Part shown: one piece after another, positions 3,382 to 36,047 of the stretch
Numbering within the stretch: the stretch's first letter is position 1
Layout of the letters: the number at the start of each line of letters is the position of its first letter
Source: Atractiella rhizophila
Lineage: Eukaryota
DNA length: 36,047 nt
Assembly (NCBI GenBank): GCA_021432655.1
Contig: MU271643.1
Coordinates: 1-36,047, forward strand
Reading direction: 5' to 3'
Translations under genes and position numbers: made by a program
Notes under the pieces: model-generated
The model's database searches: none
The model's input: the letters and a program-made list of their open reading frames with translations, nothing else
What the model was told of the DNA's origin: nothing

Positions 3382-4788
3382 ATGTCTTCGAAAAAAGGAA
3401 AAACTCCAGCGGAGTTCTTCAGTACGCTGTTTCTTCTCATAGTCTTGGGGCGAGGTCGTTGATTACTCCTGTGCTCGTTTTTTTCGCTCGCTTGAACAGC
3501 CGACTTCATGATGGGTGGAGTGTCGGCTGCTGTTGCTAAGACTGCCGCTGCCCCTATCGAGAGGATCAAGCGTGAGTCCAAGTCTTTTCTGTCCAGAAGT
3601 CGAAATACTGATATACATTCAAACAGTTTTGGTTCAGAACCAAGGTATTTATGGGGTTCATTTTCGTCGTGGAGCCTTCTCCTAAAAGCTTTCATCTACT
3701 AGGTGAAATGATCAAGGCTGGCCGTCTTGATACCCCTTACAAAGGTATCATCGACTGCGCTCGCAGGACTTACGCCTCTGAGGGTCTCGTTGCCTGTGGG
3801 TGAATCTCCCTTCCCTGTTGGTCTGCGTTGACGTAGAACGACAGTCTGGCGAGGAAACACCGCCAACGTCATCCGTTACTTCCCTACCCAGGCTCTTAAC
3901 TTCGCCTTCAAGGATTACTACAAGTCCCTCTTCAACTACAAGAAGGATAAAGACGGTTACGCTCTCTGGATCACTGGTAACGTCGCTTCCGGTGGTGCCG
4001 CCGGAGCTACTTCTCTCCTTTTCGTCTACTCCTTGGACTATGCGAGGACGAGGTTGGCCAACGACAACAAGAGCGCCAAGAAGGGTGGCGAGAGGCAGTT
4101 CACCGGTCTCGTTGATGTCTACAGGAAGACCCTTGCTTCCGATGGTATCGCTGGTCTTTACAGAGGTTTCGTTCCCTCAGTTGTCGGTATCATCGGTGGG
4201 TTCCCTGAATTTCTTTCCAGCAAATAAGTGTTATGTTGCTCACCTGATCCCCAGTCTACCGAGGTGCCTACTTCGGAGCCTATGACTCTCTTAAGCCCAT
4301 CGTCCTTGTCGGTTCCCTCCAAGGCAGCTTCGGTGCCTCCTTCGCTCTCGGATGGGGAGTTACCACTGCTGCTGGTATCATCTCTTACCCCTTGGATACT
4401 ATCCGAAGGAGAATGATGATGACGTCTGGTGGAGGTGTTCACTACAAGTCCGTTTCCCCCGTGGTCCCATTGTTCCTGGAGGCTGATGGAGTATGTGACA
4501 GGAACATGTTGGATTGCGGTATCCAAGTCGTCAAGGCTGAAGGTGTTGGATCGCTCTTCAAGGGAGCAGGTGCCAATATCCTTCGTGGTGTTGCTGGAGC
4601 CGGAGTGTTGTCCATGTATGACAAACTACAGTGCGTATCCTTACTGCATGTTCTAGACTTTCTCTGATGACAACTCGATTATTTAGGGAAATCATGTTCG
4701 GAAAGGTTTACTCCGGGTACGCATTCTTTCTTTCTGACTAAAGAATAAGGACTCATTGTCGTCGTGATGTTGCAGTGGATCCGGCTAA
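3382..4788 (+). CDS. AAC: Mitochondrial ADP/ATP carrier (adenine nucleotide translocator), multi-exon
   Basis: ATG at 3382. Spliced product has [66 protein letters not shown] and the ANT signature [12 protein letters not shown], and ends KVYSGGSG* at 4788. Includes an 18-nt micro-exon (3627-3644). Confidence 0.97.
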
Positions 4789-7542: not shown

Positions 7543-10500
7543 ATGTCACAGGCAAGGTCTGCGACTATGACCGCTAACCAAGACGTCAACAGAGGGGTGG
7601 TGGGTCTGGGAATACATTTCGGAAAGGAAAAAGGGGGCGAGAAGAAAGATTCAGCCAAGGGAAAAGATGGTCATTGCGTCGGTATGTTCTCTTCCTTCCT
7701 GTGATTTGTGATTGGATGTGAACTCTTTCTTTTCTTTTCCTTTCCTCTAAAAATACCTATGTACCTTTTTTCGTTGGGCATAAGGCAGACGCGATTTCGG
7801 TTAGCTTTCTATTGTTGTGCAGTGGACATCCGATTATTGTGGCGGTCATTTTCAGCCTCACAAAGACCGTGTTCCCAGGTATTGATTAATGACTTGAGAA
7901 TCTCGCGGGCTTCTCACTCTGATTGACGAAGAGGTGTTCCGTCTGCCAACACATTGTGTCAAACCGTGCAAGGCGTAGAGAACGTCTCGGCACTTCCCGC
8001 TATGGTCCGAATATCTATGTTCGGGTTAAGATGCCTAACAACCCTGCGTTTGGATAAGATGCTCACCTTCTAATTTTTGCTTCAAAACGTTGGGAGCGGA
8101 GTCGCGGAGCTATCACCATTAGGGATCTACGGCCTTGCACAAGCTGAGACACTACCAGATAGACCATATAACAGATATCAAGTTGGCAGACACTGATCAC
8201 CTTCCCTCTTGAATTTGCAGTGACAGCAGACTTGATGTCGACCTCAACATCAGTATCAGTACCACAATCGTTGAAACCAGCCTCCGCGGCATCGTCACCA
8301 ACGAAATACATGAACGCAAGCGTATCTGTGCCAGTGCCAACATCAGTGCCGGTCACAAATATTTACAACGACAATATCATTCCAACGCCTATTCTTTCAC
8401 CTTCCACACTCCTCACTCCACGACCTTCAAGACGGAATCTGAAAGAACTTGAGGCTACAACGGTCGTCATATCGGATTCACCCTCTCCACCGCCTTCTCC
8501 TGGCCCGTCGTCATCGGTGTTACCGGTGACGGAGAACAAGCACTCTTACCCCACTCCGACACCATCACGACCCAATTCTCTGCCAGTACCTGGTATGGTT
8601 GGAGTTCCACTTCCTCCATCGCCAACACGGGCAGTCAGTCTTATGATCACAGACGATGACGACCGTACATCCCTCCAACCTCCTCCATCTCCCTCATTTT
8701 GGCAATCGGCGTCCCCAAAACGGCTTCGATATCCCTCTCCTCCATCATCCGTCCCTCCGTCTCCCGAAATTTTACCAGCGTCTCCGTATGTCAACACCTC
8801 ATTTTTTCAGCTCGCCTCCTCATCTGGCACTTCACCCCTCCCTTCGCCGGTAACGACGAGCACCCCCTCAGTCACGTCTCGATTTTTCGAACCTCGTCTT
8901 ACAACCTCTCCAGTCCTTTCCCGTTCTGCGTCACCCACACCGATATCGACCCTCCCCGCCTCTCGACCCATGCTTTGGGCCGGTGGGAGTTCGAGTTCTG
9001 CTGTCTCCCATGCAATGGGGGCGACAGCGCGACGGAAGGGAAAAGGGAAAGAGAGAGTGCTCGACCACACAAGGAATTTGAGTTTGACGACAGTCATGGC
9101 TCGCAGTGAGAGCTGGGGCACTTATGGACGATATAAGAATCGCAAGAGGTGGAAGTTGGGACTCCGGTTGTTGATGCTCATCGGATTCGGAAGCTTCGTC
9201 ATTCTTTGCTTCTCAATCTTTGGACGACGGACGGAACAGGGATGGGATAAGCGCCATTGGTTCTCAATCGCTAGTTCGGGATCGTCGGCGGGCTCTGAAG
9301 GGTGGTGGTTTGCTTTTGGTTTGTTGGGAAGCGGTTTGAAGGCGAAGAAGGATCAATTTCAATTCGCTGATGTGGGACGAGAAGAGTTCAAGCATGGACA
9401 TCTGCTCAACAATTCAGGGTTGGAGAGTCCTCAGCGCGATACCCTCGTCGTCTATAGGATCCTTGGCAACGACCTTCCACCGCGTCACATGCCAGGTCAG
9501 ACTCTCCGCAACCTTCGATTTTTGTTGGAGGAAGAGAAGAACTGGTCGTTTGGACCGGAACTGTTTAGGGAGCGGAAGGATGACATTTCTCAGTATGCGC
9601 CGATCCGAAGAGTCGAAAAGTATTACGTCCTCAATAGGATCTCTTCGACTGCTGCTCGAGACGAAATCATGGCTTTACTTCATCGGCATGGTGTGACAGA
9701 GAGCCATATTATTGAGATTAAGTTTGATTGGGAGGAGTATGGGAGGCTGGGTTTAAACTGGGGCGGTGGTGTGGCTGAGGAGGGCAGTCGGATTTGGGGG
9801 ATCGGTAAAGCGGGGAGCAAGCACAGAGGGAATGAGAGCGATATGGAGGAGTTATTGGGAAACAAGAAGTGGAGGGAAGGGATGGAGAGACTGAAGGCTT
9901 TGGATTTCACGTACGAGAAGAAGAATATTTACGCCATCAACAACGTATGCTCTACACTCTCCTTTGCTCATTTCCGGCTGACCCGTGACGTAGAATGGTG
10001 GTCGCAATGTCGCTCTGAATCACGGTCGTTCCCTTTCGCACGCCCGTTGGATCCTTCCTCTCGATGGCAACTGCTTCTTCACTCCAGCTGCCATGTATTC
10101 TCTCGTGCGATCGCTCGCAGCGAAAGGAGAAGGCCGCCTAAAGAAGAAGTACACCATTATCCCCATGTCTCGCCTCACGGACAACGGTGAGGTTGTGGCC
10201 AACAACACCGTCGAGCTCCCTCACCTTCTTTCTTACGGCGAACGAACAAATACCGATCTGAACGAGGTCCTCCAACTTGTGGCCCCAGCGACTCCAGAAG
10301 AACCACAAATCGGTTTCCGTTATGATTCTGATCAGTCGTACGAGGAGTCTATGCGATATGGCCACCGCAGTAAGCTTGAGTTGCTGTGGCGATTGGGTGC
10401 CATTCCTTACAATCGTGGTCTCGACAAACGAATCGCTCCATGGGAGGTCAACGACAAGAAGCATTTAACTGCAGACACGTGGGGATCGATCAAGCCAGAC

Positions 10501-11778
10501 AAGAAGATGCATCCTGAAGATACAGACGCATGGGTCCAAGGTGGTTGGGTATTTCGTCTCTTCAGCGGAAGTCGAGAGCAAGAGCTGCATTCCACAGAAG
10601 CGAACGTCCTTCGGAACATTAACCGAATGAAAGCTATTGCCGGATTTCTTGAACGACTAGACGAGCAGTTGGCAAAGGGTAGAACGCATAAGGGAGAGAT
10701 CGACGAAGACGACTGCGGCTTCAGCAAAGATCATTTGTGGAGCTGGGACGAGGTATCCGTCTTGGGATTCAAGCGCAGAATTAACGAGTCCGCGCGCCGC
10801 TTTGAACGGAACGTCCTCGTCAAGATTGCAGCTGAAGTTGCTCATGCTTGCCGTCTACTACTTCAAGAACACCAACACGCAGAACTTCTGTCTACAGATC
10901 CTAAAGAAGTCTCGATGAAAGCGACGATCCTCGCGCTCTCCGGCTTCCTGTTGGAAGATTCATCCTTAACATCCCTTAGTGCTGAATTGATAACCGCACG
11001 ATTCCTGCCCGCTCACATCGTCCCTTACTTCTCGCAGACACGATACCTGCCGCATAAACGGCCAGAGCGTAACTTTACCGAAACCCTCAGTTCCTTGTCA
11101 GAAGAAGAAAGCGGCTATGCCTTCCTGGAACCAACATGGGAACCAGAGCACACGGACTGCTGGGCTCTTCACAAACCAGTCACAGCTAACAACGGCGAAT
11201 ACAAGGCCAAGTTTGCTTTTGATCCCCTTGAATTTGACCCTACTCTTCTCCTCGATGCCGTGCGACTTGTATCACCGCCGTTTGCTGATGCTGCCTATTC
11301 GTCGAGTTTGCCGCGACCTGTCTTCCGAAACATGATCGAGGCTCACCTTTCGTTTCTCTTGTTTGACGAGACTGCTGTCCGGATATCTCGCTATCCTCCG
11401 GACGTGGATTCCAGTCTGCGCTACGACTGCAAAGTTGCTGCTCTGGCGGCTTGGACGGGAAACGCAATTCTTTTAAACCGAAGTAAGTGTCTTATGTTCT
11501 TGGCCCCTGGAGCACAAGCTCATCATTTTGTCATAGTCGTGAATCGAGCACGGCTTCGCTTCGATTACCCGCCTGACTTCCTATCCGATCCTACCTACTT
11601 TCAGACCCATAAAAAAATCCTCAGTGGCTTGAAGAATGTCAAGTTTCATCCTTTCGCTCACATCGATGACTACGAAGAAGACTTCGGAGCCATCGACTTG
11701 GATGGTCAATGGGAGACTATTCCTTCTTTCCCAGATGAGCATCTTGCCACTGACTTTTGGGATGAACTCCTTCGCTAA
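7543..11778 (+). CDS. Large type II membrane protein: Pro/Ser-rich N-terminus, one TM helix, GT-A-like domain, degenerate alginate-lyase-like helical C-terminal domain
   Basis: Exon 7543-7681 splices in frame to 8221 (539-nt intron 7682-8220; alternative start ATG 8235). Intron 9945-9993 joins the two long ORFs; a probable in-frame 54-nt intron lies at 11483-11536. TM segment LLMLIGFGSFVILCFSIF follows a basic stretch. Conserved-looking blocks: DTLVVYRILGNDLPPRH, YAINNNGGRNVAL..GR...RWILPLDGNCFFT, EEPQIGFR, YGHRSKLELLWRLG, GWVFRLFSG, LLDAVRLV, YDCKVAALAAW. Gene existence is firm; function is inferred. Confidence 0.8.
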
Positions 11779-15663: not shown

Positions 15664-16767
15664 ATGGACAATGTCGCCCTCCTGCTTTCCGTTCTCGCCG
15701 CAGTACCACTCATTGTCTGTCCTACGTGTCATTCTGTCTCCAATCTGACCGTCCATCCAGGCCTATGTCCTCCTTACCGTCTTCTCCCCATCCCCAAGGG
15801 ACCCCTTCCCCTCAGAGCTGACCTACATCACTTCCACCTCCTCCACCGCCCAAACCCCTGCCCTCACTCTTCGACAAGCCCTCGATCGAGCTCTCCATCA
15901 TCGTTCCCGCCTACAACGAAGTCTCTCGTCTCCCGCACATGTTGCGCGACGCACTCTCCTACCTCACCTCGTCCTCCTGTCCCATCAAGAGCTACGAGTT
16001 CCTCTTAGTCGACGACGGGTCGTCCGATGGAACCGCAGCTTTAGCCTTGGAACTAGCGACGCAGTTGGGGATCGGAGAACACATGCGGGTGGTCAAGTTG
16101 GAGAAGAATAGAGGGAAGGGAGGCGCGGTCAGACATGGCATGATGCATGCTCGTGGAGAGTATGCTCTGTTTGTGGATGCGGATGGTGCGACGGCTTTTG
16201 GGGACCTTCAGAAGCTGTGGGAGGTTATGATGGAGCATCAGTCTAGCGCAAAAGGAGAAAAGGAAGAGCAGCCCGCGGTGGTGATTGGCTCCAGAGCACA
16301 TCTAGTCAACACAGAGGCGGTGGTCAAGGTCTGTCCTCTGCCTCTTACTTATCTACATTTTCATACCCTGTTGTTAACAACACTATGAAATGATGCAGAG
16401 ATCGGTTCTGCGCAACCTGCTCATGCGTCTCTTCCACCTCTACCTCCTCCTCCTCGGCCTCTCCCACATCCGCGACACCCAATGCGGCTTCAAGCTCTTC
16501 TCCCGCTCCTCCGCCCTCCTCATCTTCCCTTACATGCACACCGAACGTTGGATCTTCGACTGCGAGATCCTCATCCTCGCTTCCCTCAACCGCATACCCG
16601 TGTCTGAGGTCGGCGTCAGGTGGAAAGAGATAGCCGGGTCAAAGGTCGATGTCGTTTGGGATAGCTTGGTTATGGCGAGAGATTTGGCGGTTATTAGAGC
16701 TAACTATTTACTTGGGAGGTGGGGACAGAAGACTTGGAAAGTGCCTACTGTACCTAAGAAGGAGTAA
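15664..16767 (+). CDS. ALG5: Dolichyl-phosphate beta-glucosyltransferase (GT2)
   Basis: Introns 15715-15760 and 16329-16398. N-terminal signal anchor, then ELSIIVPAYNE, LVDDGSSDGT, NRGKGGAVRHGM, FVDADGAT, IGSRAHL, IRDTQCGFKLFSR, RWIFDCEIL and V.WKEIAGSK, the typical Alg5 blocks. Confidence 0.95.
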
Positions 16768-18312: not shown

Positions 18313-21300
18313 ATGTCCTGCCTTAACATATCCCCCAACGCTACATGTTCCGCAGGGTCCTGCCTTGGCCCATTCACTGGGGACAACTGCTCGACGCTCA
18401 CTTGCTCCAACGCCATTTTACCGCCACAGGGGAGAAACTTGAGCACAAACGGCGCATGTGCGAGCTGCGATGAAGGATGGGGTGGGATTGGGTGTAATGG
18501 TGCGCTATCTTTTGCTTCGTTTGCTATTGGAGAGCAGTATCAGCGTTTCAGGATGTTGGGAACGTTTGTTTTCATGCTTGCTGGAGCTGACCAGCTTCAG
18601 CATCATGGAACTGAGAAATCTTTCTATTATCAAGAACCTTTATGCGGACTTGGGATGAGAATTGGTTATCCTTTCCGCTTGAATAGAACACACGCGGGAC
18701 AATTTCATGGGCAGTTTGGGAGCACATTATTTGCGCGTCTTGCATTCAGCTCTAAAGGCGAGAAAGCCTCAGAATAAAATTGTGCTGAGGAAGGATTGCA
18801 GAGCACTCCCTCACTTCTCAGTTGCCGTCTACTTGCTCGGTCAGTCTCAGGCTGTTCATTTCTCAAAATAATTGGCTATATCATTGGGCTATGCCCGCCG
18901 GTCCGGGTCCAATTGACAGTTTTGATTTTGAGGGAGACTACCTTAAACTCGCATAATGGTGCACAATGCAGAGAGTATTGGCAAAGTATATGTCTCTTAC
19001 TCTGTGGCCTTGCAGTGTGCACCAGCAACCAAGCATGTCAAAATGCCGTCTCAGCCAACTCCTCAGCCTCTGGCAACATCCCAACGTCCGGTACTCTCCC
19101 AGGGGGAGAATCACTTTCTACTGTAGTATGTAATACAGCACCTAGGGTGTATACAAGCGTTCGTACACCACCGCCTCCCTCATTCATGAGCTGACGCCGA
19201 GGATACAGGGCTCCATGACCTGCGACGTCGACAATCCGACTGTCAAAGCCGTTTTCTCAGGAACCGCCGTCCTCGCCATCCAAAAGACTGTCGGATCCTC
19301 TTCCTCATCACTCTCGTATCCGTATACGTCAGGTATAAGCGGTGCTTCCGCTCAACTTTGGTATACGCCATCCTCTTCAACAACTAAGGTTCCAATAGAG
19401 CAGTTTTATTGCGCTGCTTCGACCTGTTCTCAAACCACGAACACGAAAAAGCAGCTTAATTCCTTTGTTTGCAAAGAGCTAAGTTGCCGCTGTATCGTTG
19501 GAACGGACTTTTGTGGTGGCGGAGGATTGGATTTGACGAATATCATCAACGGTTTGAATGGAGAGCTGACCATCGACTGCTCGACCTCTTCTTCCAACTC
19601 TACCTGTGCATTCAAGCAAGAGGCACTGCAAAGCCTCTTCGGACCGAATGGACTCACACTCAGCGGATGTGGCTTTGGCGAGTGTGTTTTCCAAAGCGTT
19701 ATCGAGAGTGCGGCGAGCGACGAGGCGGCTGCGCACAAGAAGGAGCTCAGCCCTGGAGTCATCGTTGGGTTGGCGATTGTAGGAGTGCTCATCGGAGCTG
19801 CTCTCCTCTTCATACTCCTCGGATGGATAGCACAACGAAAGGCTCGACGCGCTCCCATTACTGAGAAAGAGGCGAGCTCTGTTGGGGTGAGGTGGGAGAA
19901 CATTTCCTATTCCATACCGACTCGGTCTTCCTTCCTTGCCCTTTTGGAACCTACCACGACGTCAAGGCGGAGGAGGAGAAATAATATAAACGCCAAACCG
20001 GAAATGTTCGTCGCAGAGAAGAAAGGGACGGAAACCAGCTTCACAGGAGGCGTCTTTCCTGCCAACGAAGACGAGATTCCACTCCGTGGACAAGAAAAGG
20101 GTGAAAAGCAAATCCTCTCGAACGTCAGCGGATACGTGCCTCCTGGCCAGATGCTCGCAATTTTGGGGGCTTCTGGGACTGGTAAGCGCCTTTCATCATT
20201 CCAAATGTCCAAGTTTGACACGCACAATCAGGTAAATCGACTCTATTGGACATCTTGTCATGCAAACGAAAGGCAGGTCGGCTATCTGGTGACGTCTACC
20301 TTCTTCCTTCCTCGGACTCCTCCTCTTCGTCCCATCCTACAATCGCATTTGTGGATCAAAACGACGTCCTTCCATCCCACCTCACAGTCCGAGAGGCTTT
20401 AGCTTTCGCGGCGAATCTGAAGCTCCCAGACAACACGCCACGGACTGTTCAAGATACAACGGTTTGGGAGATATTAGAGCAGCTTGGATTGAAGAGAATC
20501 GCGGAGAGCAAGATTGGCGATGGAGAGCGTAGAGGTATTTCTGGAGGTGAGAGGAGGCGGTTGAGCATTGGAATGGAGCTGTTGTCGAAGCCCAATGTCT
20601 TGTTCTTGGATGAGTTCGTACTTTTTCCTGCATTCCACACGGCGGCATAATTGATGTGTGACAGGCCCAAGTCCGGTCTCGATTCTGCCGGAGCTGCTAA
20701 CGTTGTGCATGTATTGCGTACTCTGGCAAAAGAAAACGGCACGACTATCATCGCGAGCATTGTGAGATTTACCTCCATATCCCTCCATTTGAAGCTCAGT
20801 CTGCGATAGCACCAACCGAGCTCTCAGATCTTCCACGCTTTTGACAGAACCCTGCTTCTTGGGTATGGAAAACCGCTCTATTGTGGGCCGACTGAATCGG
20901 CCATGGACCATTTTGCAGCCCATGGCTACTCACTCCCCCCAAATTACAATCCCGCGGACTACCTCCTTGAAATCTCATGCGGTCCGAATCCTCCTGCAGT
21001 CGATATGGTAGAGGACGCTCCGGTCACCACTGAAAAACGCTTATCACTATATTCCCTCACTGGGAAAAACAACAAGCCAGTAACGACAATGCTGACCCAG
21101 TTTGAAACCATCGGAGCAAGAGAAATATACAACCTGCGAAGGGACTGGTCCTTGATCGTCATGCATAATGTCCTGGCTGTAAGTTAGACGCTCTGCATGT
21201 TGTTTCTCAGTTAAAGTCTACACAGATTATCATCGGAGTTTTTGTTGGGGGGCTCTTCTATCAAGTGAATGATTCCATCAGCGGTTTCCAGAATCGCGTA

Positions 21301-28252: not shown

Positions 28253-28786
28253 AGTAACGCGCTCGGCTGCTGAGATTGAGGACAATGGCTTTGAGGCTTT
28301 GATGGATGACAAACGACGATCATGGAACATGTGTTCATTCGGTCTGCATTATGCGCCCAACTTTGCTTTTTGGCGCATCTTTATCGTTGGACCGCGGGTG
28401 TAACGGACGGTGCTGGAATAGTTGAACAATGAGACAAAAGAGCCGTGGAGGCGAAGGGGAACCGGAGTTGTGCAGGTTGATGAAATTTCGATGGACCTTG
28501 TCTTGAGAAACGTTTAGAGAGCCATGGATTGAAATTTCACTGATTTATTACGAACTTGAACAGCATTGATGAAAAATAGAACTGAGATTGAGATCACCCA
28601 AAAGTGAAAGAAGCAGGCGAGTCAGCAATTTGAGTTTGTAGCCCGAATCGGAAGCGCCAAACGGGACGCTTTTGAGAAAAAAGACGACCACCTCGCAACA
28701 ACATCTCCCTGCCCGTAACAAAACCTCGACCCCAACCACCATCACCCACCCTCCCTCCGGATCCTCTCATCCATCACCCAACAAGA

Positions 28787-30694
28787 ATGTCTTCCGAAGC
28801 CTCCCCCGCTGTCCCTGCCGCCGCCGTCGCTGCCCCGCCACAAATCGACACCAACGTCTCGAATGGAGTCGCTGGACCTCCCACCGCGACCTCTGAGATG
28901 GTCACTTCCCCGGCTTTCGATCCCGCCAACTCCACCCTAACCCTCAGGGCGCTCGTCTCCACCAAAGAGGCAGGCGTCATCATTGGGAAGGGGGGAAAGA
29001 ACGTCGCGGACCTCAGGGAGGCGACCGGCGTCAAGGCCGGCGTCAGTAAGGTCGTGGCTGGAGTTACGGATAGGGTTTTGACTGTAACTGGCAAGTTGGA
29101 GAGCGTTTCGAAGGTATGTGTCACTCTTTTGGATAGTAAGAAATTGTTTGGGAAGGAAGATTATTGTTGCCGTCATGGGAGAGGCATTATTTATTCCCTT
29201 TGGAAAGAGGAGCATATGAGAGAAGCTATATCGTCAATCTTTTTTTGTTGACTTATTTTTGCTAAGGCGATATCTTTGTTGCGATGGAGAGGGAAGAAGT
29301 CGGAGCAGACTGTTCAGCTGCCAGGATCAAATTTCACGCGTAATCGCACTACTGAGGACTCCGATTGAAGAACGGAAATTGCATTCAATGTCCTTTCTCT
29401 CTTTCGTTGAATCAAACCGACTTTTCTTACATTAGTTCATGTTCAGCTTCACCTTACTTGTTCATTTGGAGCAAATGAAAATTTTGGGGTCTAAAATCCC
29501 AATTACAGCGGTCGAGTTTGTGAAATCGAGCCGCTGTCCGACTCAATGGAGCTATCTATTTGGCGCAGAGGGTTCTATCAAATGGATCGAAACCTTGTTT
29601 CCCCATTTGCTCCTCAGCCTCAGCCTCAGATTGATTGGGTTCTCCGTCCCTCGCGGACGTCGTTTTGGTGAGAAAGAGCATGTTGACGTTCGCCTTTTTG
29701 GACGTGTTTCAACCTTGGAAATCACCCTTCGTGAGATGACACCCTATTTACGTGATTCGACTTTCGCCCGAGACGCCGTTCGGGCATTGTTCCGTCCAGA
29801 ACTGATACTGACACGGCACGATGACGAGAACAGGCCTACTCTCTCGTCGCGCAGACTATCCTCGAAAATCCCATCTCTGTCTCTCCGCCGACCACTCCTG
29901 TCACCTCTCCCACCAGCTCTACGTCCACCATCCGACTCCTCATCTCCCACAACTTGATGGGTTCCATCATCGGCAAGCAAGGACTTAAAATCAAGCAGAT
30001 CCAAGACGCCTCTGGAACTCGCATGATTGCTGGAAAAGAAATGCTTCCTCAATCTACCGAACGAATTGTCGAACTCCACGGAACGACGGAGGGAATCCGA
30101 GTTGCTGTTTGGGAGATCGGGAAATGCTTGTTGGAGGACTGGGAGAGGGGACAAGGCACGGTGCTCTACCACCCTGGAGCTGTTGGACCGGAAGGAGCGG
30201 CTTCGACGTACCCTGGAGGCGTGTTGGGCAGCGGGTCTTCTTACACTTCTCCCATGAGGAAGCCGTCTGGAGGACCGAGAAGGAACGGGAGTGGGAGCGG
30301 GAGCCCCACCGCTGAAAGGCGGAATACAAACGGGAACGGCGCCGTTGCCTCCCCTACGGATCCCAATATGAGGACTCAGAACATCTCCATCCCCGCCGAC
30401 ATGGTTGGATGCATCATTGGCAAGGGCGGAAGCAAGATTAATGAGATTAGAAGGTTGAGTGGGAGCAAAATTTCGATCGCTAAAGACGCTCATGACGAGT
30501 CTATGGAGAGGATGTTCACGATCACCGGCGTATGTCTCCCTTCCTTCCCATTGCTGTGGTATTGGTGCTGACAGATGACGTGTGTGCGGACGTAGACGGC
30601 GGAGGCGAACGAGAAAGCGCTCTTTTTGCTTTACAACCAGCTGGAGACGGAGAAGGAGAGGAGGATGCAGAGCGTTCAGGAGCAATCCGAATAA
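28787..30694 (+). CDS. rnc1: Triple-KH-domain RNA-binding protein of the Rnc1/Pbp2/PCBP type, 3 exons with a 720-nt first intron
   Basis: Introns 29114-29833 and 30530-30595. Three KH GxxG loops (AGVIIGKGG, MGSIIGKQG, VGCIIGKGG) and the C-terminus NEKALFLLYNQLETEKERR, closely resembling S. pombe Rnc1. Confidence 0.93.
29461..29613 (+). other. Candidate multi-stem structured RNA element in rnc1 intron 1
   Basis: A perfect 10-bp closing stem GGAGCAAATG (29468-29477) / CATTTGCTCC (29604-29613) encloses three hairpins: 29484-29502, 29505-29537 and 29554-29587. Confidence 0.55.
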
Positions 30695-31813: not shown

Positions 31814-34800
31814 TTATTCTTTGAGGTATCCATTCTTGATAAGCCATTGCTCCACGTCCTTCTCATCGCTTGCAAGCCAGTTCGCCCGTTGCTTCACGAT
31901 TTCCAAACCCTACAGAATTCATTCATGTCAGTGACATGCAGAGCAACACAAGAAAACATTGTACCTCAGTCAACCGAGAAGCATATGACGAGGTGCTACG
32001 AATCCTGTATGAGCAAATTACACGGGAGGGAGAGAGGCTTACTCCTTGTTCGCGAAAAACTTCTGGACATCTTCATAATCAGACATCTTGGTTAACCTTG
32101 ACAATTCGCTGTCAGAACGACGGTGGTTGCAGAAAGACATCACTCACGCATTGAACGAATAGATGACAAAATGAGCGAATGAGTAATTGCCCTTGTAACG
32201 TTCTGCAATCACATTGAAATGATCCTACAACCTGACGTGAGCAATGCAAGTTTTGGAAACACGGCGACTCGCGTCTTCGCTAAACCAGTTCCAGAACTTC
32301 CGTCGCGAGGTGCCCACTCCTCCCAAGTTTCCAGAGAATCGCATCAGCTCCTAATAGGACGTCAACACAGGAGTCATGGGTGCGAGTGAGATATCCACAT
32401 TGTCCTTAATTTCAGCGGGATCAAGGAGCTACAGAGAGGTTGAGTGTTGCTACTGACAAATAGCTTATTCTTACCATCTTAAATAAGCGGTCCAAAACTT
32501 TCTCGTCTGTGGTCCTGCATAGACCTCTGACAGCCGCCAGGCGTTCGTCTGGGGAGCTAGGGTCCTTGAAGATCTTGAGGACAGCTTCGAACTCTGCAAC
32601 GCCTCCATTCTTGACAGCTGCGCCGAATGCCGCCGTTCGAATGTCACCTGGAATCAGAGAGCGGTCGTTGTTTTCCAAGACTGGCGCGAATCGTCGTTGG
32701 ATTTCCTTGACCGTGCTGACAAAAGGGTCATTTTATCACGCATCCGCCAACATCCCACTTACGCTTCATCTCCAGTTAGAGCAGCGTGTTCAATAGCAAG
32801 AGCACGGAGTTCATGGATTGCGGGCTTCTCTTTCGGGTCGAATTCGAAGCCTAACCTCTGAACGAGAGGAGCAGCTAAGGATCTCCTGACTGCTTGTAAC
32901 GCCTCGACGACTTCAGGACGGCTTTCAAACCAAGTGCTATGGGTCTGACCCAAACAGCCTACGTTATGGGGTCAGCACGGCGAACAGATGTTAGGGCACG
33001 CGAACTCAGCATCTCGTTCCATACCAAGTGCGATTCCTCATTAGACATTTTGGCAACGAGGTCCAGCACAGCAGACGTCTTTCCGTAACCAGCAGTTGCG
33101 AGTGCCATAGCATCTTGGATCAGACCCATCCTGCAAGTAATTAGAAAGCAGTAGTGGGAGAAATCCATGCTTACCTGTCAGCAACCGAGGTGAAGCCGTT
33201 TGGTTTCGCCATCTCCTCGCCCAACTTGGCAGAGCGCTCCGGCGGGTATAGCACACGATCTAGTCAGAAGCAGTGAGCAATGAGGTTCTTTGTTAAGCCG
33301 AGGACGCACAAACGCCGTTAGTGTCTGCGTTAAGTTTATAGGTCAGGTTCTTGACATCCTTCAAAGGGATGATCTTTTCGCGAGAGTCCAGAAGCAGCTT
33401 TGAGTCAACGGAGACCTTGCCATCGGCATCCACTGTCTTAAGGAAGAGTGGCACTTGCCAGATTGTTTCGTCCTCCTCAGGCTGTAGAACATTTCAGACC
33501 CAAAAATACGAACCAAGAACAACCCAACCGTGGAACGCCAAAACCCGAATTCCTTTGTCAGTCATTTACTCCCAAATCAAATCATAAACGCACTCAAGAA
33601 CCTATTTTGCCTAACCTTCAATCCCTCCTCTGTCTCTTCCACAGTGATGACAGGGAATCCCGTTTTCTTCGTCCAGTTATTCATCATGCTAGCCACGTCG
33701 AATCCACTCGCTTCCGAGATGGCGTTCCAAAGATCGGTCGTCTCTGAATTAGAGTAGATGAATCGTTTCAGATATATAGACCTATGTAGATACCTCAGCT
33801 GGTTCGAGTGAGAATGAAAGACTTACACGCCATTCAAGAATGGCTTCTCCCCAATGAAACGCATGAGCATCCTCAGCACGGATCCACCCTCTACGCCACA
33901 TTAAACAGCATAAAAAAAGGTTTAAAAGAAGGCATACTCTCGTAAGAAATGGAGTCGAATATCTGCCTCTTTGATCAGCGCTATCACTCTGAGGAAGGGC
34001 ATTCATACCTGGTTCACGCGATTGCTGTCTTGACATTCCACTTCAATGGGATGAGAAGATCTGGTAGCGTCCAGAGACAAAGCACGCTTCAAAGCTGAAG
34101 TGATGAAGTCGTCCCATACACTCCACTCTGGTCGTATCCTGTCAAGCACGACATACTCTCCAACCTAGTTGCATCGGATCAGGAGAGCAGAGATCAGCGA
34201 AGGATTCCTACCAAAGTAGCGAAGGCTTCATTGAGCCACAATCCTTCCCACCAGCTCATGGTCACGATGTTGCCAAACTTGGATTAAGTAAGCGATTGTG
34301 GATATTGCTTTGGATTGGGAAATGACACACCCACATGTGAGCCACTTCGTGAGACTGTACAGAAGTGATTTGTCGATTGGCGGCCAGCGATGGATTCTCC
34401 TCGTCATAAAGCTGTGCCTCTATTCACAGTCTGGTTAGCAAAACTTCATGAGATATGTGAATAAACATGCCAGTTCGACCGGTGATTAATCCCCATCCTT
34501 CCCTATAAATCCTGTCAGCAGAATGAAGAGGAAGAGGAAAAAGTTGTGTACATGGCACCCATATCGAAATCGTGAGCGCTGAGAGTATCGAGTTTCGGGA
34601 GCGGGTACGGAATGTCGAAGATCTCCTCAAAGTGAGGCAAAACTTCGGCCGTGACATCGATACACCTTTGTCCCTGCTTCACGATGTCCTTGGTCGCATA
34701 ATGTCTAAGAGGGAGCCTTCCTTTCGAGAGCTCCACGGACTTCTCGAGGCATCTATGATCAACTAGATGAACCGGTTCTGCTTCTGTCAACAAATGGAAG

Positions 34801-35701
34801 CAGGACGCACTCGAATGGTCCCACCGCGTAAGTGACGAGATAAGTCGACACCTTCGGGCTCTTCTCGAACTCAGTAAGCGTCCACTCTCCCTCCTTCGCA
34901 TCAGCGGCCTTGAGTATTTGCTCATTGAGAGACTTGAGGCTGTCCTCGTTGAGGAGTTCACTCGGCTCGAAGGTAGGTCCTGAGATCTTGGTGGATTTGG
35001 ACGGCATGTTTGCGAGGGCAACGTATTCGGAACGTGCGAGGAGAGACATGCTGTAAGTCGCCTTGAAGTTAGGCTCGTCCCAGCAGGGGAAAGCCTGAAA
35101 TTACTTTCTCATCAGATCACAGAGATTGATGGAGTGAGAGAGCAAACCTGGCGTGCGGCCGTGGGTTCGAACTGGGTCAGAGCGTAGGATACCGTTTTGT
35201 CGCTACCGGAAGGTTTATAAGAAGAGTTGTAGAAGCCTACAACATCAAGGATCAATTTGTTATGTAGAATCAAACAGAAGAAGACCAACCCATCAAGGAT
35301 TTTCCAAGTTGGGCAGAGAATGCCAATCCCAACTTGACCTTTCCAGGCGAGATGATTCTCTTCTGATCGGGAGCGCCGAAGGTGACAGTGAGTCTTTCAT
35401 CTTCTCCCTCAGCCCTCTGGATATGGCCACCTTTCCAAACCTCTCCGATCACCTTGCCACTGTCATCCAACTTCGCGAGCGCCACGGAGTCCTCAAAGAC
35501 GTTAAGAGTCTTCGCAGCATGAAGAACGAGCTTGTCCGTGTCCTTGGGGACGTCTAGAGAGATTTCAACCAGTCCAGAAAAGGTGAGAGAGGATAGATCA
35601 GTCTGGATCTTTAAGTCATAATGGGTTGGAGCTGGACCACCAGCGTCGAGAGACGCGATGCGATAGGGATTGGAGGGGTCAACAAGATCTGGGAGGGACA
35701 T
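31814..35701 (-). CDS. M1-family zinc aminopeptidase (Ape2/Aap1/puromycin-sensitive type), many exons
   Basis: ATG at 35701 (PTHYDLKI); TQFEPTAAR/AFPCWDEP; STYLVTYAVGPF; YPLPKLDTL; GAM/EGWGLITGRT; HEVAHMW...WLNEAFAT (HEXXH-x18-E); FDSISYEKGGSVLRML; ERAP1-like C-terminal region; stop at 31814-31816. One GC-AG intron at 34420-34470. Confidence 0.95.
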
Positions 35702-36047
35702 CGTTTGCTTTTGTTTCTGTGTGAAGGCCCAAGATCTACTGGAAATTGTGTATGGTGACAGTGACAGAGCTCGATGTAGCTTTGATGTAGCGACGAGATG
35801 GGTGGTGGAAAGCTGTAGATCAGTTCAATCAGCCTCTGAGTTCTCGTGGTTCATTTGTCAATGTGTGCGCCTATATATATATCACAATCTAGCGACCTTT
35901 GCTCGCTTCAGGAATGAGTCGATTAGCGGTCTGCCGTGGACTTTGGACACGAGCCAACGTTGACAGTTGGGTGTTGAACCGAGACATCATGCCAGCACCA
36001 AGTGAGGGGTGGAATAACTTCAGCACGCACCTTTCTACTTGATCTTG

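Follow-up and report, generated by a model that had tools for sequence, protein, structure and literature searches.

A GT-A-like domain joined to a decayed PL38-type lyase remnant in a predicted membrane protein of Atractiella rhizophila

Introduction

What is the function of a fungal protein whose relatives are mostly bacterial, uncharacterised and named for an alginate lyase, when its own lyase site appears to be lost? This question is raised by a gene at about positions 8235-11778 on the + strand of contig MU271643.1 from the fungus Atractiella rhizophila (assembly GCA_021432655.1); the window studied here is the whole stretch of 36,047 nucleotides from the start of that contig. The original prediction had read the gene as a membrane-anchored domain of the glycosyltransferase A type (GT-A), fused to an apparently inactivated alginate-lyase-like domain. 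Here, we find that the gene has two short introns and a product of about 1146 amino acids. We put the probability at roughly 0.9 that this product is a type II membrane protein composed of a GT-A-like domain (domain 1) and a dead, truncated domain derived from a lyase (domain 2), and at roughly 0.6 that domain 1 is an active, putative nucleotide-sugar transferase. The transferase reading is preferred because domain 1 keeps essentially all of the residues that are conserved across its family. While the fold and the lyase family are of known kinds, the domain 1 family, its motifs, its fusion to a lyase and the decay of that lyase in fungi are undescribed; no description of domain 1 or of its lyase fusion was found in the open-access literature. 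The annotated counterpart of the gene, P0003 (hypothetical protein, Atractiella rhizophila, 861 amino acids, marked partial), equals residues 246-1106 of the spliced product with two mismatches (859 of the 861 residues are identical).

Results

Predicted fold of domain 1

Domain 1 is encoded on the + strand in two parts that flank the first intron. The first part (9429..9944) contains strand beta-1, the GNDLPPRH loop, the motif LNRI and lineage-specific inserts, and was placed by its match to a hidden Markov model (HMM) of the N-terminal domain, by AlphaFold and by conserved columns. The second part (9994..10680) contains NGGRN, the strand WILPLDGN, PMSR, EEPQ, YGHRSKLELLWRLG and GWVFRLFSG. 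Domain 1 of the window protein matches the N-domain HMM with an E value of 6e-53 plus 1e-15.

An AlphaFold model of P0003, built on an alignment of 60 sequences, has a mean pLDDT (predicted local distance difference test) of 75.4, with values of about 90 over most of the domain cores, and represents domain 1 as an alpha/beta sandwich. When the whole model was compared with the PDB by Foldseek, all 47 listed rows were GT-A glycosyltransferases (E>=4.4e-3), among them chitin synthases, LARGE1, SpsA, RmlT, LH3, GlcAT-S and K4CP. The AlphaFold model of P0133, a bacterial homologue of 369 amino acids, reaches a pLDDT of 89.4 and has 28 PDB matches at E<=1e-3, of which all those listed are GT-A transferases (probability 0.87-1.00). 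Its top match was human GlcAT-P (1.6e-4), and AvpGT, SpsA, GalS1, B3GalT6, K4CP, BcsA, TarP and LARGE1 were also found, as were hyaluronan and heparosan synthases at E<=1e-3.

Other structure collections gave a similar picture. In the Foldseek library of viral structures, the P0133 model retrieved one true relative (Megaviridae) and otherwise GT-A-type glycosyltransferases. The nearest ESM Atlas neighbours of the window domain were bacterial clusters named 'alginate lyase family' (template modelling score, TM, 0.65) and a cluster of hypothetical proteins, most of them viral, with GT2 clusters following at a TM of about 0.4. Judged from the predicted models, the fold of domain 1 is GT-A, as the original prediction had expected for about 9436-10680, and the family is remote from every characterised one. 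Viruses recur in these comparisons: the Atlas also names mostly viral clusters as nearest by features, and the giant-virus member, BFVD A0A5J6VJ98_2 from a Megaviridae environmental sample, is a segment of a multi-domain 'GT2' protein (Foldseek E 2.8e-15, 29% identity).

Conserved motifs of domain 1

The motif D-G-N (10063..10071, + strand) closes the strand on which GT-A enzymes have their DxD. D349, G350 and N351 (P0003 numbering) are nearly invariant across the 60 fungal sequences; among 25 standalone proteins, D208 and G209 do not vary and N210 reaches at least 90% conservation. Since it is conserved throughout the family, D-G-N is the family's own motif and not a decayed DxD; the original prediction was right that DGN is found where DxD is expected, but the substitution is not a sign of decay. 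The strand order in the P0003 and P0133 models would assign D-G-N to the DxD position. Some GT-A families have no DxD, and its absence is therefore compatible with activity.

The motif E-E-P-Q (10297..10308, + strand) opens a later strand and is a candidate counterpart of the 'xED' motif, which would make it the catalytic base of an inverting GT-A enzyme. E428, P429 and Q430 of P0003 are invariant in the fungal alignment, and E259 is invariant in the bacterial one. Directly after beta-1, R172 and H173 are nearly invariant in both the fungal and the standalone alignments.

Over the whole domain, 87 columns reach at least 90% conservation in 80 bacterial N-domains; the window protein is identical at 73 of them and differs at 14, and the columns kept include all invariant charged and polar residues. 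The Mucor protein also keeps 73 of these 87 columns. This conservation bears on whether the entire protein could be a non-catalytic relic, that is, a pseudo-enzyme that binds or scaffolds glycans or other enzymes. The loss of the ancestral catalytic residues in domain 2 and the long stem of the Pucciniomycotina-type clade (0.72) would agree with such a relic, but a domain 1 as well kept as that of Mucor would be unexpected if catalysis had been abandoned, and we regard the relic as improbable.

Family and distribution of domain 1

No curated family was assigned to the gene, as had been foreseen. Pfam gave no match to either exon at E<=1, NCBIfam gave none to P0003, P0133 or P0077, and a phmmer search with exon 2 against PDB sequences returned chance-level matches only (E>1). 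P0003 has a sub-threshold match to Pfam Glycos_transf_2 (PF00535; E 0.07, 13.5 bits versus a cut-off of 23.3), which spans exactly NGGRN...DGN. The blocks GNDLPPRH, EEPQ, YGxRxKxELLWRLG and GWVxRLxSG, all of them invariant, are in no curated model of Pfam or NCBIfam.

When exon 2 was searched against proteins and 8000 candidates were scored, 134 of them reached E<=1e-3. Those that have a name belong to Pucciniomycotina (Puccinia, Phakopsora, Cronartium), to one Orbilia and to many Mucoromycota, Glomeromycota, Mortierellomycota and Basidiobolus, and those of the last four groups carry the annotation 'alginate lyase domain-containing'. We also found 66 shorter proteins with domain 1 alone, including standalone forms of 270-390 amino acids with all motifs. 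A profile of 25 standalone forms matched 1482 representative clusters at E<=1e-3 and 874 at E<=1e-30, in a collection of 1.84 billion proteins.

Among bacteria and archaea (one genome per species), relatives are encoded by 214 of 254 candidate stretches. The best 80 of these 214 stretches, kept as 76 loci, form the bacterial locus set, which covers Alpha- and Gammaproteobacteria (many of them Halomonadaceae), Spirochaetota, Bacillota, Verrucomicrobiota, Desulfobacterota, Cyanobacteriota, Actinomycetota and others.

Domain 2 as a lyase remnant

The C-terminal domain (10741-11775 as a whole, with its first part at 10741..11482 on the + strand) is all-helical and is interpreted as a truncated remnant of a lyase of polysaccharide lyase family 38 (PL38; PF05426-like). 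The P0003 model contains helices only over residues 578-855. Pfam PF05426 gave no match to the window exons or to P0003 at E<=1, and P0003 was missed by an HMM of the bacterial lyase domains. Comparison of profiles revealed the relationship: a profile of 27 window-type C-terminal regions aligned with 57 bacterial lyase domains (hhalign 98.5%, E 1.7e-15) and with the Mucoromycota regions (99.7%, E 3e-27), and the Mucoromycota regions aligned with the bacterial lyase domains over their full length (100%, E 1.2e-41, 316 columns). The aligned core in the window is 10876-11568, close to the 10860-11560 or so at which a lyase-derived helical domain had been anticipated. Against the PDB, the profile of the fungal family matched 3nfv ('alginate lyase', 6e-24) and 8bdq (3.5e-13), and the fused bacterial protein of Peribacillus (L035) matched the same entries at 2.8e-61 and 4.1e-45.

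We identify 8bdq with BoPL38 because the alignment numbering puts Y91, Q173, N242/H243 and Y298 exactly on PYWWP, YAQ, NNH and HY, and because one variant entry has HF in place of HY. According to the passages of bioRxiv 10.1101/2024.12.11.627697 that deal with its mechanism, catalysis by BoPL38 relies on Y298 and H243 as the base/acid pair and also requires Q173 and Y91, N242 holds the carboxylate, and a minor secondary epimerase activity uses the same Tyr/His pair.

The counterpart of the lyase in the window protein covers only template positions 93-256 of 361, so that the domain lacks both of its ends; nothing in it corresponds to the PYWWP loop or to the final third of the barrel. In the hhalign alignment and the column table, V-D-S (11404..11412, + strand) is aligned to the catalytic N-N-H, with D at N242 and S at H243. 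Q173 is replaced by P, and Y91, the conserved Arg and the H-Y pair (Y298) have no equivalent. The D and S at the N242/H243 equivalents are not conserved even within the window protein's own clade. The loss of NNH had been noticed in the original prediction, but the domain is not merely mutated, since it is shortened as well.

Of the 67 columns with at least 90% conservation in the 57 bacterial lyase domains, 8 are retained in the window protein, 26 hold a different residue and 33 have no counterpart; the corresponding counts for the Mucor protein are 25, 30 and 12. In Mucor, N-N-H is replaced by D-H-R, in which the His stands one position earlier than usual, and H-Y is retained. The lyase site is thus lost from the window protein. 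Its decay is graded, from intact in most bacteria through partial in Mucoromycota to nearly complete in the window clade, and it began before the window lineage, as Mucoromycota already have D-H-R.

These alignments also bear on the idea that domain 2 is still catalytic through other residues, as a uronate C5-epimerase or as a lyase of new specificity that acts on the polymer of domain 1. The secondary epimerase activity of BoPL38 in the passages cited above (bioRxiv 10.1101/2024.12.11.627697) and the retention in Mucoromycota of the H-Y pair, together with a His one position earlier, speak for it. Yet the window protein has no equivalent of the Tyr segment, of the PYWWP loop or of the final third of the barrel, and the D/S that replace N242/H243 are unconserved in the clade, which leaves an active domain 2 very improbable.

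Membrane topology and N-terminal tail

The sole strongly hydrophobic segment of the protein comprises residues ~306-330 (9150..9224, + strand); its best 19-residue Kyte-Doolittle (KD-19) window scores 2.41, and it is modelled as a helix at residues 56-84 of P0003. Within the 15 residues on each side, the N-terminal flank has seven Lys/Arg and no Asp/Glu, and the C-terminal flank has four Lys/Arg and two Asp/Glu. Calculated from hydropathy and flank charges by the positive-inside rule, and not with a dedicated predictor, this single transmembrane segment is a predicted type II signal anchor, which would place both globular domains in the lumen or outside the cell. The topology agrees with that proposed originally.

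Ahead of the anchor lies a probably cytosolic tail (8235..9149, + strand) in which Ser, Pro and Thr make up 47% of the first 300 residues. The tail is presumably disordered; its modelled part, residues 1-55 of P0003, has a pLDDT below 50. About 290 codons of this Ser/Pro/Thr-rich open frame are at 8235-9095, upstream of the anchor.

Gene model

On the + strand, frames are open at 8172-10190 and 9994-11778, and the spliced segments 8235-9944, 9994-11482 and 11537-11775 yield 1146 codons without a stop. Exon 1 (8235..9944) has 570 codons when read from the ATG at 8235; it includes YRILGNDLPPRH and ends with ...YAINN. Its start is uncertain, as the frame is open from 8172 and a second candidate ATG is present at 9096. 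The upstream start is favored by the long Ser/Pro/Thr-rich open stretch and by the long N-termini of relatives in the same clade, of which P0006, P0008, P0031 and P0046 have 175-390 residues ahead of the conserved domain. The annotated N-terminus of P0003 is probably too short, because P0003 starts at residue 246 of the 1146-residue model and is marked partial.

Intron 1 (9945..9993, + strand, 49 nucleotides, phase 0) has a GTATGC 5' end, a CTGAC branch site and a TAG 3' end. Exon 2 begins with NGGRNVALNHGRSLSHARWILPLDGNCFF, which reads NGGRNVALNHG..., and includes EEPQIGFR, YGHRSKLELLWRLG, GWVFRLFSG, ILALSGFLLEDSSLTSLSAELITARFL, LLDAVRL, DVDSSLR and YDCKVAALAAW. Since intron 1 separates YAINN from NGGRN, the string NNNGGRN exists only in the spliced product, and removal of the intron restores this invariant block as it is found in P0003.

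Intron 2 (11483..11536, + strand, 54 nucleotides, GTAAGT...TAG) is in frame and contains no stop, and it therefore reads through silently. Its 18 residues are missing from P0003 and from the homologous Mucor stretch in the alignment, and identity to P0003 shows as 96% when the intron is read through in the query. If intron 2 were retained in a transcript, the full protein would still be encoded, with 18 extra residues within the helical domain. Exon 3 (11537..11778, + strand) encodes the last helices and an acidic tail and closes with the stop codon at 11776-11778.

The motifs quoted in the original prediction are all present in exons 1 and 2. Its span of 9436-11778 ends correctly on the last base of the stop codon, but begins with the conserved domain (codon at 9435) and not with the gene, and thus leaves out the anchor upstream at ~9150-9224. 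The gene had also been described as having few introns. It does hold the two longest open stretches of the window (672 and 594 amino acids, followed by 567, 450 and 418, with most neighbouring pieces at 110-250), which is a crude comparison. The second intron, at 11483-11536, is an addition to the original description. The GC (guanine plus cytosine) content of the gene is 0.48-0.52, similar to that of the remainder of the window.

Bacterial relatives and their loci

In the 76 bacterial loci, 65 of 84 open reading frames (ORFs) with domain 1 also carry the lyase domain, nearly all of them directly behind a linker of ~50 residues; some of the 19 ORFs without it are cut by contig ends. With these ORFs and the 214 stretches described above, the original statement that the motif blocks occur in uncharacterised, mostly bacterial proteins named for an alginate lyase is borne out. 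The lyase segments of the fused ORFs (66 in number) contain NNHG in 50 cases, HY..FN in 45 and PYWW in 32. Most of the bacterial ORFs are probably soluble, because 77 of 84 have no KD-19 window of 1.6 or more.

The gene content of seven loci of cultured strains (59 ORFs) was scanned with Pfam. Besides paralogous copies next to one another, these loci contain GT2 genes, Wzy_C, an initiating sugar transferase (Bac_transf) and ManC, as well as pyruvyl transferase, CysNC, an ATP-binding cassette (ABC) ATPase and ATP-grasp enzymes; alginate synthase genes of the alg8/alg44 type were not seen in the seven loci. Pfam comparison of 20 long ORFs, which reach 2913 amino acids, showed the module joined with GT2, GT1/GT4, sulfotransferase, methyltransferase and rhamnosyltransferase domains, and some long bacterial ORFs have coiled-coil-like stretches. 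Because of the gene content of the loci and the fused glycosyltransferase and modifying domains, the bacterial fusions are polysaccharide-assembly and not catabolic proteins. They are reminiscent of the multi-domain polymerase/terminator proteins of ABC-transporter-dependent O-antigen systems.

Two or more paralogous proteins with the N-domain and the lyase domain stand side by side in L026 (9755-14297), L038 (7014-19392), L046, L050, L018, L019 and L011. The separate placement of such neighbours in the tree suggests that they go back to old duplications and differ in their roles. In a metagenome-assembled genome (MAG) of Bacillota, a protein of 1569 amino acids (L022, 9770-14476) has one lyase domain between two copies of the transferase-like domain.

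Descent of the fungal proteins

A quick IQ-TREE tree of 130 domain 1 sequences (309 columns, midpoint root) was evaluated by the Shimodaira-Hasegawa-like approximate likelihood ratio test (SH-aLRT) as its only support measure. All 25 eukaryote-type rows (17 from early-diverging fungi, 4 from Pucciniomycotina and 4 unnamed) form one clade with SH-aLRT 100. This clade lies within the bacterial diversity, adjoining a cyanobacterial MAG, a Micromonosporaceae MAG and a EukProt transcript (group support 97), in agreement with the bacterial ancestry that had been suspected. Inside the clade, Basidiobolus branches first, followed by Mortierellomycotina, Glomeromycotina and Mucoromycotina, an order that roughly follows the fungal phyla. 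The Pucciniomycotina-type clade (support 100) is placed beside Mucoromycotina on a stem of 0.72 changes per column. The tree is compatible with a single ancient acquisition from bacteria, after which the gene was either lost from most Dikarya or passed at a later time from one fungus to another.

Recent bacterial transfer or contamination of the assembly could also be proposed, as the family is mainly bacterial and the gene seems poorer in introns than those around it. Recent transfer is ruled out by the two spliceosomal introns, which follow the fungal consensus, and by the ordinary GC content, which is like that of the window. The closest named relatives are moreover Pucciniomycotina, and the eukaryote-type clade is fully supported. 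We therefore reject recent transfer and contamination, to which we grant almost no probability.

Two of the sequences nearest to the fungal clade are worth describing. The EukProt transcript beside it, P0118 (1017 amino acids), has a full lyase domain (E 8e-101 to the lyase HMM) with NNH and HY intact, and since it keeps this domain, the intact two-domain form also exists in some eukaryote. The Micromonosporaceae MAG, among the closest bacterial rows, encodes a protein (L056, 5767-8403) with a strong N-terminal hydrophobic segment (KD-19 of 2.71 at residue 37), a feature similar to the fungal anchor and atypical of the bacterial copies.

Neighbouring genes in the window

A Glycos_transf_2 exon piece is present at 15822-16385 on the + strand (Pfam E 4.7e-27), about 4 kb downstream of the gene; it is probably a housekeeping gene, for example for a dolichyl-phosphate sugar synthase. 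As short exon pieces, Pfam further identified a PINIT domain of the SUMO-ligase type (1433-1879), a mitochondrial carrier (4248-4664), an ABC ATPase (20219-20647), a multi-KH-domain protein (28676-30568) and, on the - strand, an M1 aminopeptidase (34518-35824). None of the window neighbours recognised by Pfam gives a functional clue to the gene.

Discussion

Weighing the transferase reading

The comparisons recovered both a GT-A-like fold and homology to a lyase, and no characterised CAZy family with an intact catalytic site emerged from Pfam, NCBIfam or the structure searches. Several results nevertheless weigh against the reading that we prefer. The whole P0003 model has no PDB match at E<=1e-3 by Foldseek, and the strongest evidence for the fold comes from the bacterial P0133 and not from the window protein. 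P0133 is itself remote from known GT-A enzymes, with an identity of 7-12%, a TM normalised by the query of 0.2-0.4 and Foldseek E values of about 1e-4. The 25 standalone members match no Pfam glycosyltransferase model even at E<=1. The canonical DxD (or DxH) is absent, with D-G-N in its place, and an invariant Arg-His in the loop after beta-1 is, to our knowledge, not usual in GT-A enzymes. The location in the secretory pathway is drawn from one hydrophobic segment and its flanking charges. As for domain 2, no lyase structure was among the listed Foldseek matches of the whole P0003 model, and the toroid shape of the remnant is for this reason deduced from sequence homology.

A further point of this kind leads to a different enzyme. 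Next among the matches of P0133 are IspD nucleotidyltransferases, which have the same fold (4kt7, 1.5e-3; 5ddv, 2.0e-3). Domain 1 could accordingly be GT-A-like in structure and yet be a nucleotidyltransferase, or a transferase of phospho-sugars or phospho-alcohols, that decorates a polymer; as a nucleotidyltransferase, it would use the Gly-Asn-Asp-x-Pro-Pro-Arg-His loop as a Gly-rich, Arg-containing loop for binding a nucleoside triphosphate. The missing canonical DxD and the nearly invariant R172/H173 after beta-1 would suit this proposal, and the GNDLPPRH loop presumably resembles the signature of sugar nucleotidyltransferases. On the other hand, the 28 PDB matches at E<=1e-3 are glycosyltransferases, with the nucleotidyltransferases ranking lower, the named structural neighbours in the Atlas are GT2 clusters, and the sole Pfam signal is that of GT2. 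We consider such a transferase unlikely, although it is the most serious competitor to a glycosyltransferase.

Proposed mechanism

If domain 1 is a nucleotide-sugar transferase, the Ser/Pro-rich tail would remain in the cytosol, while the two globular domains would be in the lumen of the secretory pathway or at the cell surface. There, domain 1 would take the sugar of a nucleotide sugar and add it to a glycan, with D-G-N at the diphosphate- and metal-binding place of DxD and E-E-P-Q in the position of the catalytic base of an inverting GT-A enzyme. Domain 2 descends from an (alpha/alpha)-barrel uronate lyase of the PL38 type; it is no longer capable of the ancestral lyase reaction, and has most likely been kept to support the transferase structurally or to hold the glycan. 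The acceptor, the lumenal location, the roles of the motifs and the link to uronic acids are parts of this scheme that we infer.

A possible role in polyuronide synthesis

The link to uronic acids can be drawn further. Domain 1 might found a new glycosyltransferase family that makes beta-1,4-polyuronides, and might supply the glucuronosyltransferase still missing for glucuronan/mucoran in Mucoromycota and in bacteria that produce glucuronan. The ancestor would have been a self-editing synthase, in which the fused PL38 domain trims, caps or epimerises the chain, and fungi would have kept the transferase while the editor decayed, in part in Mucoromycota and all but entirely in Pucciniomycotina such as this Atractiella. 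We offer this as a speculation that is more likely wrong than right by a wide measure. It is suggested by the substrates of PL38, which are given as alginate and beta-1,4-glucuronan in the relevant passages of PMC11890756, by the walls of Mucoromycota, which a section of PMC6433966 describes as rich in glucuronic acid, and by the glucuronyltransferases among the structural neighbours of P0133, which are prominent there but may be so by chance. The family is also present in every named Mucoromycota genus that was returned.

The candidate family could fill two gaps. A passage of PMC10180729 states that the genes with which bacteria make glucuronan are unknown, and the glucuronosyl transferase of the Mucor wall polyuronide appears in the section concerned of a review only as a membrane-bound activity (PMC6433966). 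The supply of UDP-glucuronic acid (UDP-GlcA) was considered as a discriminator between readings and dropped, as Basidiomycota in general are predicted to make UDP-GlcA in the relevant part of PMC8092308.

A passage of PMC7928374 mentions an 'alginate lyase (agl)' gene whose position at the flank of the sex locus is conserved in Mucorales. On that passage, agl may belong to the same family and is a candidate member.

Domain 1 occurs in at least 1482 clusters over many bacterial phyla, in giant viruses and in several fungal lineages, with a PL38-type uronate lyase as its constant partner. For the window fungus, the gene would mark an unstudied glycan-building step in the secretory pathway, and it provides a clear example of a fusion in which one domain was kept and the other decayed.

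Comparison with known systems

Domain 2 is homologous to PL38 lyases (BoPL38 of Bacteroides ovatus, 8bdq, 9fh*/9fi*; 3nfv/3nnb; PF05426), with which it shares the helical repeat architecture. In contrast, PL38 lyases are secreted degradative enzymes, while the window protein is predicted to be membrane-anchored, with the remnant behind a transferase-like domain.

The order of strands and helices in domain 1 matches that of GT-A enzymes such as GlcAT-P (1v83), SpsA (1qg8), the E. coli K4 chondroitin polymerase (2z86) and LARGE1; we take GlcAT-P to belong to GT43 and SpsA of B. subtilis to GT2. In both, an acidic residue ends the DxD strand, and a helix start resembling N-x-G-x-x-x-(A/G)-R-N comes before it. 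The differences are the low identity of 7-12% and the D-G-N that domain 1 has instead of DxD.

A lyase in the service of synthesis is not without parallel. AlgL is a separate periplasmic protein and, unlike the window protein, is not fused to a transferase. As a PL5 enzyme encoded in the alginate biosynthesis operon, it is a precedent for a uronate lyase in a biosynthetic system, as described in passages of PMC10180729 and PMC11890756.

The closest systems in architecture are the two-domain proteins themselves. The bacterial 'alginate lyase family protein' of Peribacillus (L035), Kushneria (L026) and Fulvimarina pelagi (L040) is homologous to the window protein over both domains, which stand in the same order, are joined by a linker of ~50 residues and include all motifs of the N-domain; it differs in that the bacterial forms are mostly without a hydrophobic anchor and mostly keep the lyase motifs. 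The 'alginate lyase domain-containing proteins' of Mucoromycota have the same architecture as the window protein, including an N-terminus like a transmembrane segment, and belong to one clade with it, but their barrel is nearly full-length, with the H-Y pair and 25 of the 67 lyase columns still in place.

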